Virus record (IMG/VR): IMGVR_UViG_3300017950_000006
Coordinates: 25,994-89,993 of that record
Direction: 5' to 3' (one strand)
From: a virus
DNA length: 64,000 nucleotides
This document shows positions 25,187 through 64,000 of the stretch, in pieces (position 1 is the first letter of the stretch; each line of letters opens with the position of its first letter). The notes under the pieces were generated by a model. It had not been told where the DNA came from. It was given only the letters and a program-made list of their open reading frames with translations, and did no database searches. Position numbers and translations under genes: made by a program.

Positions 25187-26779
25187 ATGGCAAACAAAAG
25201 TTTAGACGGTGTACTAACTAAGAAAGCACACCAAAAAGAAAAGTTTACACAAGTACAGATTGAGGATTTGGCTAACTGTATGGATCCTGAATCGGGGTAT
25301 CTATATTTTGCTAGGAAGTTCTTCTATATTCAACATCCTGTAAAAGGTAAAGTGTTGTTTGAACCTTATGATTATCAAACACGACTACTTTCAAGTTATC
25401 ACGATCATCGATTTAATATTAATATGTTACCTAGACAGAGCGGAAAGACTACTACTGCCGCAGGATATCTATTATGGTATGCAATGTTTCATCCAGACCA
25501 AACAATTCTAATTGCCGCTCACAAATATACAGGTGCCCAAGAAATTATGCAACGTATTAGATACGGATATGAACTGTGTCCTGATCACATACGTGCTGGA
25601 GTTGTTAACTATAATAAAGGGTCAATGGAATTTGAAAATGGATCACGTATTGTAGCACAAACAACCACAGGCAACACAGGACGTGGTATGAGTATCTCAT
25701 TACTATACTGTGACGAGTTTGCGTTTGTGCAACCTAACATTGCTACAGACTTTTGGACTTCGATATCACCTACACTAGCAACTGGTGGTCGTGCTATTAT
25801 TACAAGCACACCAAACTCAGACGAAGATACATTTGCTATTATTTGGAAAGAATCTCAAAACAAATTTGATGAACACGGCAACGAACAACAAGTAGGTATT
25901 AATGGTTTCCATGGGTTTACTGCATCCTGGGACGAACATCCTGATCGAGATGATGAATGGAAGAAAACTGAATTAGGACGTATCGGAGAAGAAAGATTCC
26001 GTCGTGAGTATGGTTGTGAATTCTTAGTATTTGATGAAACACTAATTAATTCAATTAAACTTGCGTCAATGGAAGGTAACGATCCAATTGAGAATATGGG
26101 CCAAATACGTTGGTATAAAAAATTAGATCCAACACAAACTTACACAATTAGTTTAGATCCTGCTATGGGCACAGGCGGTGATTACTCTGCTATCCAAGTG
26201 TTTGAAGTTCCTTCATACAAACAAGTTGCAGAATGGAGACACAACACAACTCCTATTACTGGGCAAGTTAGAATACTAAAAGAAATTTGTGACTATATTA
26301 AAGAAACAACTAGGAATAATACTGCTAGTAACATTTATTGGAGTATAGAAAATAACACAATTGGAGAAGCGGCTTTAATTGTTGTTCAGGATATTGGCGA
26401 AGAAAATATACCAGGGCTATTTGTAAGTGAACCTATGCGTAAAGGACACGTTAGAAAATTCCGTAAAGGATTTAATACTACCCATGCTACTAAAATTAGT
26501 GCTTGTGCTAAATTAAAGAGTATGGTAGAATCAGATCTTATGACGATTAACAGTAAAGCATTAATATCAGAACTTAAAGGATTTGTAGCAAGTGGAACAA
26601 GTTTTAAAGCAAAGCCGGGTGAAACTGACGATTTAATCAGTGCAACACTACTGGCATTAAGAATGATGAAAGTTTTAAAGGACTGGGATCCTAGAGTGTA
26701 CAATACATTTAAGCAAGATCACGTAGATGGAGAGGATTATGAGCCGCCGATGCCAATTTTTGTATCTTCCGGCTTCTAG
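25187..26779 (+). CDS. Terminase large subunit (gp17-like)
   Basis: PRQSGKTT Walker A, LLYCDEFAF Walker B, ITSTPN, F.REY.CEF, DPAMG.GGDYS and DDL nuclease motifs. Confidence 0.95.
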   Translation: MANKSLDGVLTKKAHQKEKFTQVQIEDLANCMDPESGYLYFARKFFYIQHPVKGKVLFEPYDYQTRLLSSYHDHRFNINMLPRQSGKTTTAAGYLLWYAMFHPDQTILIAAHKYTGAQEIMQRIRYGYELCPDHIRAGVVNYNKGSMEFENGSRIVAQTTTGNTGRGMSISLLYCDEFAFVQPNIATDFWTSISPTLATGGRAIITSTPNSDEDTFAIIWKESQNKFDEHGNEQQVGINGFHGFTASWDEHPDRDDEWKKTELGRIGEERFRREYGCEFLVFDETLINSIKLASMEGNDPIENMGQIRWYKKLDPTQTYTISLDPAMGTGGDYSAIQVFEVPSYKQVAEWRHNTTPITGQVRILKEICDYIKETTRNNTASNIYWSIENNTIGEAALIVVQDIGEENIPGLFVSEPMRKGHVRKFRKGFNTTHATKISACAKLKSMVESDLMTINSKALISELKGFVASGTSFKAKPGETDDLISATLLALRMMKVLKDWDPRVYNTFKQDHVDGEDYEPPMPIFVSSGF

Positions 26780-62519: not shown

Positions 62520-62680
62520 TCAAGGGTAAAAATGCCCCTATGCGACAGACGTCTTAAATGCATGAAAATCACCCCTAAATGGCTCTTATTTGCCGACTTA
62601 AGGAGTTTTACTATACAATGTATATCAAACAGGGTTTTATGCGAGTAACGGTGTTTTAACCGCTTTTAAGACGCCTATTA
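62520..62680 (-). ncRNA. Candidate structured ncRNA (multi-branched), unassigned
   Basis: 13-bp closing stem TAGGCGTCTTAAA/TTTAAGACGTCTG plus four nested stems and a 3' hairpin, folded by hand. G-U pairs favour the minus strand. Confidence 0.45.
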
Positions 62681-62701
62681 TATATGTATATAAGTACTAG
62701 T

Positions 62702-63286
62702 ATGATTAAAGATTTTATAGGTGTGTTTGACAATCAACTCGATCCAGAGTACTGTCAAACTGTAATTGATTACTATCACCAACAAGAAGGAACACGTATA
62801 CTTACACGCCAAACTGCTAACGAGCAAGCACCAAAGATGAACAAGGACGGTGCGATGCTATATGACGAAGGTGAGTCTGGTACGTTTGCTTTAAGTATGA
62901 ACAAACTGCTAGAGCCTTACTACAATGCTCTTCAAAATTGTATACTAGATTATACACAAGAATTTGGTGTGTTCGAAAATCTTAATCCAATTCAAATATC
63001 ACATTCGATTAAAATACAACATACCCGCCCTACAGAAGGATATCATATTTGGCACTGTGAACACGCAAGTCGCGATACAGGACAACGTGCTTTATTGGCT
63101 ATGGCTTATTTGAATACTGTAAAAGAAGGTGGCGAAACAGAGTTCTTGTATCAAAGCAGACGCATACCTGCGACACAAGGAACTATTATGATTTGTCCTG
63201 CAGGATTTACTCATACACATAGAGGCAATCCTCCACTAAGTGGTGACAAATATGCTATCACCACTTGGTTGGAGTTTACTCACTAA
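62702..63286 (+). CDS. 2OG-Fe(II) oxygenase (prolyl 4-hydroxylase-like)
   Basis: GYH.WHCE, YLN.V.EGGETEF and THTHRGNPP..G.KY motifs; TAAGTA-N5-ATG start at 62702. Confidence 0.85.
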   Translation: MIKDFIGVFDNQLDPEYCQTVIDYYHQQEGTRILTRQTANEQAPKMNKDGAMLYDEGESGTFALSMNKLLEPYYNALQNCILDYTQEFGVFENLNPIQISHSIKIQHTRPTEGYHIWHCEHASRDTGQRALLAMAYLNTVKEGGETEFLYQSRRIPATQGTIMICPAGFTHTHRGNPPLSGDKYAITTWLEFTH

Positions 63287-63481
63287 TTACCAGTTATTAG
63301 TAGATTTAGTAGACTGATGGCCTAAGATTTTATCTTTATTAAGACCATGCTTTACTACATAACCAGAAGTACCATTGGCATTTACTTCCACCTCATGACG
63401 AGCCTTCCATAATTCCATTTCTTTCTTTTTACGTAGTTGTTGCTCAGAATATTGCTTGAGCATAAATGAGTGTCTATCCAT
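63287..63481 (-). CDS. 64-aa hypothetical protein downstream of the glutamine riboswitch
   Basis: Strong SD AAGGAGGG; lies directly 3' of the glnA-motif RNA. Confidence 0.75.
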   Translation of the reverse strand: MDRHSFMLKQYSEQQLRKKKEMELWKARHEVEVNANGTSGYVVKHGLNKDKILGHQSTKSTNNW

Positions 63482-63506
63482 GTCACCCTCCTTTTTAAAG
63501 TTAGGT

Positions 63507-63553
63507 GCGTTCCTTCGACATAGTGTCTACTTCCAAGCGTATTGCTCGAACGT
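63507..63553 (-). ncRNA. Glutamine riboswitch (glnA RNA motif / glutamine-I)
   Basis: ACGUUC-GAGC aauac GCUU-GGAAGUA-GAC acuau GUC-GAAG-GAACG-C: P1 CGUUC/GAACG, P2, and P3 with AGUA/GAA E-loop, matching the glnA consensus as I recall it. Confidence 0.85.
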
Positions 63554-63558
63554 ATTAG

Positions 63559-63619
63559 TATTTAGCATAGCAGGTATGTGTTTTGGGTATATTATAGTAG
63601 ATCTTTTAGCGTACTTCAA
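63559..63619 (-). promoter_or_regulatory. Tandem promoters for the riboswitch transcript
   Basis: Late box TAAATA at 63564-63559, 5 nt before the riboswitch; sigma70-type TTGAAG (63619-63614)-17 nt-TATAAT (63596-63591). Confidence 0.6.
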
Positions 63620-64000
63620 TCCAACCTAGACTTGCAAAGCCATCTTTGTTTGCAACAGTCGATGCCATAGCAATAAGGAATGTGTCACTGGTATCGCCCA
63701 GCGTGGTTGTAGTTCTTCTATCAATCTGTGTGATTGCTCGTTCGTTAAATCTAAAGATGTTGCCTTGTCCGCTTGAACTTACATAGATTGTTTCAACAGG
63801 AATGCCTCCTGTATAACCAGTTGCGGTTATGTTGTATTCAATGGGCGAATCGTCACTATAACTTACCCAAGTGCCGCCTGTGATGACAGCACCTTCTACT
63901 GCCCTAGCAAACACGTTAGAGTTATCCAATGTTGCCGCAGAGAATGAATCAGGTAGTACTACGCTGTTGAGTGCTGTGCTTTTCAATCTAATAGCAACCA
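63606..64000 (-). CDS. C-terminal part of a probable virion structural protein (runs off the window)
   Basis: Open frame, G/T/S-rich, ending LGWIEVR, reminiscent of the W.E end of the 2223-aa protein. Confidence 0.5.
   Translation of the reverse strand, partial: VAIRLKSTALNSVVLPDSFSAATLDNSNVFARAVEGAVITGGTWVSYSDDSPIEYNITATGYTGGIPVETIYVSSSGQGNIFRFNERAITQIDRRTTTTLGDTSDTFLIAMASTVANKDGFASLGWIEVR

Follow-up and report, generated by a model that had tools for sequence, protein, structure and literature searches.

A type 1 glutamine riboswitch as the predicted leader of a late small-protein gene in an uncultured jumbo-type phage

The aptamer and the gene behind it

The DNA analysed here, hereafter the window, comprises 64,000 nucleotides (nt), positions 25,994 to 89,993 of the IMG/VR virus record IMGVR_UViG_3300017950_000006, and forms the last 64 kb of this 89,993-base record, for which CheckV gives a completeness of 25%. 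Close to its end, the minus strand carries an aptamer of the glutamine riboswitch class upstream of a small open reading frame (ORF), and these two elements, together with the sequences that are predicted to start their transcript and to control its translation, are the subject of this report. The following features define the element and its gene:

63504..63554, minus strand: type 1 glutamine riboswitch aptamer, assigned by its match to RF01739 and by covariation
63552-63548 with 63512-63508, minus strand: P1, aptamer stem
63546-63544 with 63538-63536, minus strand: P2, aptamer stem
63527-63525 with 63519-63517, minus strand: P3, aptamer stem
63534-63527, minus strand: junction GGAAGUAG, part of the aptamer core
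63287..63481, minus strand: 64-codon gene (ORF) for a basic protein, matching phrog_32989 with E 1.3e-12

A first-pass annotation, made from the letters of the window alone, had proposed a glnA-motif riboswitch at this site, and the RNA that it quoted is present exactly on the minus strand at 63553-63507. The assignment is borne out by the covariance model: Infernal cmscan places RF01739 (Glutamine) at 63504-63554 on the minus strand, over model positions 1-53 of 53, with a score of 39.2 bits, above the gathering threshold of 35 (E 5.4e-5, or E 1.8e-8 with the 89,993-base record as the search space). This is the sole Rfam 15 match at or above the gathering score in the whole window. A second RF01739-like match in the record scores 13.4 bits and represents noise, and Glutamine-II (the Downstream-peptide motif, RF01704) was not detected by the Rfam scan of the window.

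Comparison with related loci provides the second line of evidence. Using the 64-residue protein as query, 42 viral loci were recovered, four of which are cut at the gene and six of which are distant (49% identity). The aptamer core is kept in all 32 homologue loci with at least 61% identity and upstream DNA, and it was not found upstream of the gene in the six distant loci. A simple pattern (a regular expression) fits 31 of these 32 aptamer-bearing loci, and the 32nd, L034, has an insertion in P3. From this gene family 31 distinct leaders were collected, and 30 of them, leaving out L034, were aligned (alignment A2). Standard pairs fill 96.2% of the pair cells in A2; the observed values were not attained in any of 500 shuffles, and controls with slid partners show pairing of at most 47.8%. 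Two-sided changes are found at four of four pairs in P2 and at three of four pairs in P3, whereas P1 is invariant in this alignment and is therefore uninformative on covariation. The letters GGAAGUAG and GAAGGAACG and the C directly after P1 form invariant columns across the 30 leaders, and the three-way junction with an E-loop that had been suggested is recovered with its three stems. On this comparative sequence evidence, 63504-63554 is a genuine type 1 (glnA-motif) glutamine riboswitch aptamer with predicted binding of L-glutamine, and it would constitute almost the entire 5' leader of a one-gene late transcript.

The exceptional locus L034 deserves a separate remark. At L034:1369-1503, an insertion of approx. 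60 nt lengthens P3 into a long hairpin, while the other parts of the aptamer and the expression platform are retained.

Expression platform, promoters and direction of switching

Three further features on the same strand concern the control of the gene:

63484..63507, minus strand: putative expression platform, a hairpin burying the Shine-Dalgarno (SD) sequence 63493-63487
63559..63565, minus strand: CTAAATA box of the late (T4-like) type, preceded by TG, with a predicted start near A63553
63591..63619, minus strand: sigma-70-like TTGAAG-17-TATAAT, agreeing at 10 of 12 positions and overlapping the end of the upstream virion gene

As the first-pass annotation had it, an SD sequence and an ORF follow the RNA: AAGGAGG lies at 63493-63487 and the ATG at 63481-63479 opens the 64 codons, with 22 nt from the end of the aptamer to ATG 63481. 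In the platform hairpin (-8.8 kcal/mol, z -3.8), C63507-U63503 pair with G63488-G63484, and the CUU of C63500-U63498 pairs with the AAG of A63493-G63491. The first platform nucleotide, C63507, is the 'linchpin' C that follows P1.

A pattern for the aptamer core matched at least 119 stretches in IMG/VR (L051-L169), and a small ORF follows nearly every one of them. Among the matches listed, 90 of 118 distinct leaders can form a helix of at least 5 base pairs (bp) that starts from the nucleotide directly following P1, and its partners change together, as in CACCU/GGGUG, CACUU/GAGUG, CACUUU/GAAGUG, CAUCUUU/GGAGAUG and CAAUCUU/GAGAUUG. A covariance model including the platform helix aligned 111 matches from 100 loci (alignment A3), which correspond to 102 distinct rows. 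Across these 102 distinct leaders the platform helix is 95.3% paired, with two-sided changes at five of five pairs; one example pair is composed of CG 48, UA 23 and UG 5.

Both an early- and a late-type promoter had been proposed upstream of the RNA, and only the late-type box is conserved in relatives. The TAAATA box (63564-63559) is separated by the predicted 5 nt (63558-63554) from A63553, and P1 starts at C63552, so that 6 nt lie between the box and P1. Across the gene family, 40 of 41 distinct upstream regions have the box at a distance of 6-12 nt from P1, the exception being L026 with TATAAGTA. The box also precedes 43 of 84 riboswitches for other genes among the matches listed. In many relatives, a terminator hairpin and a T-run stand ahead of GACTAAATA, and in some TTGAYW lies 17-18 nt upstream of the box. 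A T4-type late promoter was taken to be a TATAAATA-like box approx. 6 nt before the transcript start, which is read by the phage late sigma factor, and the arrangement in the window fits such a promoter with a predicted start at the aptamer. The early-type candidate TTGAAG-17-TATAAT is the best nearby sigma-70 match, but its -35 hexamer is not conserved in relatives and sigma-70-like sites occur at chance frequency in 62600-64000 (5 versus 4.3 expected from shuffles), which makes it doubtful as a promoter. Some of the regions upstream of viral glutamine riboswitches additionally carry GTA-N8-TAC, which we take to resemble an NtcA site.

How type 1 glutamine riboswitches act is termed unclear in section 20 of Klahn 2018 (PMC6212724). 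The same section postulates that the C of the long-range pair and its 3' neighbours block the ribosome-binding site (RBS) and that glutamine melts this duplex. The ligand-dependent long-range pair is known from the structures of Ren et al., as related in a passage of the same paper, and Huang 2019 (PMC6698751) describes the same pair and argues for a like mechanism in type 2. According to section 17 of PMC6212724, an ammonium upshift raises the expression of reporters behind both the gifB (type 1) and the downstream-peptide (type 2) leaders. The viral leaders fit this postulate, and we interpret the element as an ON switch acting on translation, which is the most likely mode of action, with the direction of switching inferred from sequence and analogy. 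Transcription would start approx. 6 nt past the TAAATA box, making the aptamer the first part of the RNA. In the absence of glutamine, C63507-U63503 would lie on G63488-G63484 and CUU on AAG, and the SD sequence would be hidden and translation off. Upon glutamine binding, the C after P1 would be drawn into the long-range pair with a G of the junction, and the short helix attached to P1 would then melt, freeing the SD sequence for synthesis of the 64-residue protein. The net effect would be production of the protein late in infection and only in glutamine-rich cells.

The closest described counterpart is the leader of gifB, encoding IF17, in Synechocystis sp. PCC 6803, as portrayed in passages of PMC6212724. 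It shares the aptamer family, the position as a 5' leader next to the SD sequence and the potential of the nucleotides from the C after P1 onwards to pair with the RBS, and a translational ON response is expected for it as well. It differs in belonging to a cyanobacterium and being controlled by NtcA, whereas the element described here belongs to a phage with jumbo-phage-like core genes and has a T4-type late box; furthermore, the gifB leader gates a DUF4278/IF17 protein and has a longer P2, whereas a non-IF17 protein and a shorter P2 are found here. The many viral leaders provide comparative support for a type 1 mechanism that was so far postulated, i.e. the melting of an anti-SD helix that starts from the C of the long-range pair.

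Several observations weigh against this reading. The RF01739 score exceeds the gathering score by only 4 bits, which is explained by P2 having three pairs instead of the five in the model, and the minimum-free-energy fold of the whole leader fails to recover P1. The control for the platform helix is already high, because a helix of at least 5 bp is also found in 36% of pairs permuted between leaders. A3 was fitted to a model that already holds the platform helix, and P1 was fixed by the search pattern. The platform helix is nearly constant in the gene family of the window itself, so that its covariation comes from the leaders of other families. The CTAAATA motif is depleted in the window, with 9 sites where shuffling predicts 20.6, and at least 9 sites occur in 99 of 100 shuffled sequences. 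Four salt-marsh metatranscriptome runs contain contigs identical to 63100-63485, the small gene included, which shows presence and not transcription. These contigs stop at 63485, where the widely shared SD/riboswitch sequence begins, and for this reason the start site, the strand and the expression level are not readable from the RNA libraries; stretches lacking contig coverage carry no information.

An OFF switch, or an SD hairpin that persists in both states while the aptamer serves RNA stability or another role, would agree with the predicted stability of this hairpin by itself and with the uncertainty over the type 1 mode of action noted above. This is nevertheless very unlikely, because both tested glutamine riboswitch types increase expression in the cited section of PMC6212724, the platform helix starts at the exact nucleotide of the ligand-dependent long-range pair, and the aptamer core is unvaried across 30 leaders. 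A glutamine riboswitch that acts as a late ON switch for a small protein is, in our judgement, the probable explanation of the locus as a whole.

The contigs of four salt-marsh RNA libraries, when their depths are summed, peak 20- to 200-fold at 63490-63519, which covers the aptamer's 3' half together with the platform; such a peak is expected if many different transcripts share the conserved leader.

The 64-residue protein and its possible partners

The protein is small and basic as had been stated (64 residues, isoelectric point 9.75), but it is not the orphan that it was called: it matches phrog_32989 and has relatives in the 42 viral loci, in 65 clusters at 90% identity and in 151 clusters at 50% identity. 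The family has the invariant core V..N.NGTSGY..K.G......L.H (alignment A1). Relatives with 47-50% identity are encoded by the isolate pelagiphages HTVC019P, 131P, 134P, 100P and 008M. Upstream of these distant pelagiphage homologues, no riboswitch was detected at any of six isolate or fosmid loci (Rfam, E up to 1), and model R1 gave no matches in these six loci and in six IMG/VR loci. In a genome collection, Pelagibacteraceae account for 13 of 20 homologue loci, and the gene is present in 108 of 151 Pelagibacteraceae genomes.

Database searches returned no described family. Pfam gave no match at E up to 10 except for a sub-threshold Ribosomal_L20 match (E 0.012, 16.2 bits versus a cut-off of 30.8), NCBIfam gave no families for four family members, a profile search of the PDB gave no matches at E up to 10, and the ESM Atlas contained no usable feature match for the 64-residue sequence. 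A literature search, which did not extend to supplementary files, found neither the protein family nor its fusion to SpeD described. The profile-search matches P0182, a 640-residue repeat protein, and P0186, with 3590 residues, were borderline (E 1.4e-4 to 1.5e-4) and were set aside.

The sole functional association that was found is with SpeD-family pyruvoyl decarboxylases, either as a fusion or as operon adjacency. In the profile search, the 64-residue module follows AdoMet_dc (PF02675) in P0071, P0106 and P0190, as assigned by Pfam, and the same arrangement is seen by eye in P0098. When one fused protein was used as query, 340 viral stretches matched, and the best 80 of these were inspected (L190-L269). 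SpeD/AdoMet_dc carries the module as an in-frame C-terminal fusion in 64 of the best 80 of 340 loci (e.g. L190:2495-3079), and in five more the module is a separate ORF just downstream of SpeD; at L260:2489-3281 an operon links the enzyme with a small membrane protein and with the module. No riboswitch was found in these best 80 of 340 SpeD-linked loci. Passages of Li 2023 (PMC9992855) report that pelagiphage SpeD homologues include pyruvoyl arginine decarboxylases, and members of this enzyme family carry the 64-residue module as a fusion in many viral contigs. The SpeD of HTVC201P described there differs in comprising 122 residues without such a tail, and the record that contains the window lacks a SpeD gene; the words 'C-terminal', 'extension' and 'fusion' are absent from the main text of PMC9992855.

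These data suggest, at a level of confidence that stays tentative and below even, that the protein is the stand-alone form of a module that in many phages is joined to a SpeD-family pyruvoyl decarboxylase or encoded next to it, the enzyme acting on S-adenosylmethionine (AdoMet) or arginine. The module would then tie polyamine supply, or another nitrogen-costly step, to the nitrogen status. Three points count against such a link: the best 80 of 340 loci were fetched with the fused protein as query, which biases the fused fraction; no AdoMet_dc gene was found in the 90-kb record or in five related viral records that are 10-51% complete; and no SpeD was seen beside the gene in six phage loci, from isolates or fosmids, or in the SAR11 chromosomal loci that were inspected.

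Two other roles have to be weighed. The first-pass annotation had guessed that the protein regulates nitrogen assimilation like the cyanobacterial IF7 and IF17, by binding or tuning glutamine synthetase (GS), PII or AmtB. Known glutamine riboswitches mostly gate GS-inactivating factors (PMC6212724, section 15), and DUF4278-like peptides are also gated by viral glutamine riboswitches. The protein is small and basic, and the gene, which occurs in the 108 of 151 Pelagibacteraceae genomes mentioned above, stands behind RF01739 in two of them. Nonetheless, this role appears quite unlikely: the Pfam search gave no DUF4278 (PF14105) match, the hhalign comparison with viral DUF4278-like peptides gave a probability of 0.08%, and in 10 of 10 Pelagibacteraceae genomes glnA is on a different contig from the homologue. 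The genes found within 3 kb encode RmuC, an exonuclease, a thioredoxin, a flavodoxin-like protein and an FAA hydrolase, and in L173, L174 and L179 no GS-sized ORF on the right strand was present within 3 kb. Membership in the IF17/DUF4278 family with its YRG-type repeats was rejected on the same Pfam and hhalign results.

Alternatively, the protein could be an RNA- or ribosome-binding factor, e.g. for autoregulation or modulation of translation, with no direct enzyme partner. Its basic composition, the weak Ribosomal_L20 match and the pseudoknotted leader of the SAR11 copies, a sort of leader found on ribosomal-protein genes, would be compatible with such a function. Yet, the Ribosomal_L20 score is far under the threshold, the sequence matches no solved structure, and the decarboxylase fusion is hard to explain in this way, so that we regard an RNA- or ribosome-binding role as unlikely. 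With the protein widespread in SAR11 and their phages, two leads to its function are now at hand, namely the predicted gating by glutamine and the fusion to a SpeD-type decarboxylase.

The small proteins behind viral glutamine riboswitches are diverse. In the at least 119 stretches of L051-L169, at least six families of 25-80 residues are gated; besides the one described here, these include DUF4278-like YRGV peptides, basic W..C peptides, a 50-residue family with ..RPRCEKN.., a 49-residue family with ..NP(F/Y)YP and tandem aptamers, and ..AKLAMAMR peptides.

Glutamine riboswitches of phages and SAR11, and the phage of origin

Both this class of switch and its occurrence in marine phages were known before, and the element itself looks ordinary for its class. 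Passages of Buchholz 2022 (PMC9004378) describe glutamine riboswitches in the OM43 phage Melnitz, the Pelagibacter phage Mosig and PMP-MAVGs, and such riboswitches are mentioned for T4-like cyanophages in passages of PMC9964418 and PMC9602691. As in the window, the element of the PMC9004378 phages is of the RF01739 type and phage-borne, and the host is said there to lack the riboswitch. It differs in lying in or beside a two-piece transfer-messenger RNA gene, with ssrA or lysis timing discussed as the target, whereas the element in the window plainly leads a small protein gene; neither an expression platform nor a small ORF is described in those passages. Glutamine-II (RF01704, PMC6698751) has the same ligand, a near-identical pocket, small peptides as gated products and a proposed freeing of an occluded RBS, but it differs by its pseudoknot architecture. 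With the locus described here, it becomes testable how phages of heterotrophs couple late functions to the nitrogen status of their host.

In cellular genomes, a passage of Klahn 2018 (PMC6212724) confines glutamine riboswitches to cyanobacteria. The part of Weinberg 2010 that lists the glnA motif gives 'Cyanobacteria, marine', and RF01739 is noted for SAR86 metagenome-assembled genomes in a passage of PMC12379486. We found RF01739 in two of 151 Pelagibacteraceae genomes, in both cases directly upstream of the gene for the 64-residue protein:

L270 (G011:C13:183612-183664) and L271 (G051:C1:777830-777882), also L171 and L172: RF01739 with approx. 60 bits on Pelagibacteraceae chromosomes, amid housekeeping neighbours

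One of these copies lies on a 263-kb contig amid an MFS transporter, a dehydrogenase, a tRNA and a DEAD-box helicase, and these housekeeping neighbours indicate that it is chromosomal and not part of a prophage. At least two Pelagibacteraceae chromosomes with a canonical RF01739 element thus contradict the 2018 statement of an exclusively cyanobacterial distribution. Our literature search on glutamine riboswitches in SAR11 returned no paper describing this gene.

Most SAR11 copies of the gene are preceded by a different conserved leader, a double pseudoknot without an Rfam match:

L173-L180, L183, L187 and L189, approx. 25-80 nt upstream of the homologue (e.g. L179:2928-2983), and L272-L301: SAR11 double-pseudoknot leader

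Rfam returned only chance-level matches on this leader (E 1.2 and 3.5), and passages of Meyer 2009 contain no R2-like motif. Model R2, which represents the two hairpins of the leader, finds one copy per genome in 31 of 151 genomes, none of which has RF01739, and gave no matches in the window and 49 other loci. The loop of each hairpin pairs with four letters after an A-rich linker, and these two pseudoknot helices, which are not part of the R2 model, are 99.1% and 95.2% paired with compensatory changes, while slid controls reach 31% at most. For the leader overall, 97.5% of the cells are paired and two-sided changes occur at nine of 18 pairs. On this sequence evidence, the leader is a candidate for a new riboswitch class.

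The R2 leader lies directly upstream of the homologue in 18 genomes and precedes a 48-residue protein in all eight other loci that were inspected. This 48-residue protein shares 50% identity (E 4e-14) with a 50-residue family that stands behind canonical glutamine riboswitches in viruses. Two protein families therefore swap between both leaders, and this exchange points to a related signal being sensed by the second one. In phages and a few Pelagibacteraceae, the canonical glutamine riboswitch would gate both families, and in most SAR11 the R2 leader would take its place. One might go further and regard the 64-residue and the approx. 50-residue families as undescribed small regulators linked to nitrogen or polyamines, i.e. 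as a counterpart of IF17, with R2 as a new class that senses glutamine or a related nitrogen signal; this combined proposal is speculative and, as a whole, somewhat unlikely.

The genes around the riboswitch give an impression of the phage from which it derives. The small-protein transcript is preceded by the 3' end of a gene for a virion structural protein (phrog_1645). On its downstream side come a converging 2OG-Fe(II) oxygenase gene and then the genes for an HNH endonuclease and a DnaB-like helicase; the oxygenase gene ends 1 base from the stop of the small gene, with the two stop codons adjacent at 63284-63289. One further feature lies beyond this point:

63238..63266, minus strand: 9-bp inverted repeat AAGUGGUGA ... 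UCACCACUU, read by eye, a possible 3'-end structure

The repeat is located 21 nt past the stop of the small gene, within the oxygenase gene, and has no U-tract after it; the terminator scan did not call it. In a phage collection, a near-identity DNA search gave no match, and the sole match of a distant DNA search was the neighbouring 2OG oxygenase gene. No psbA (PF00124), a cyanophage marker, was found in the 90-kb record, which is weak evidence because the record is a fragment. The DnaB-like helicase and the large terminase, whose ORF starts at window position 25187, are nearest to those of PA5oct-like jumbo phages of Pseudomonas, at 56% and 54% identity on the amino-acid level, followed by Agrobacterium phage Atu_ph07 and Sinorhizobium phage Phosso. 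By these sequence relationships, the source is an uncultured jumbo-type myophage with PA5oct-like core genes. A related viral record of 184,930 bases is 51% complete, from which the phage genome is probably approx. 360 kb in size.

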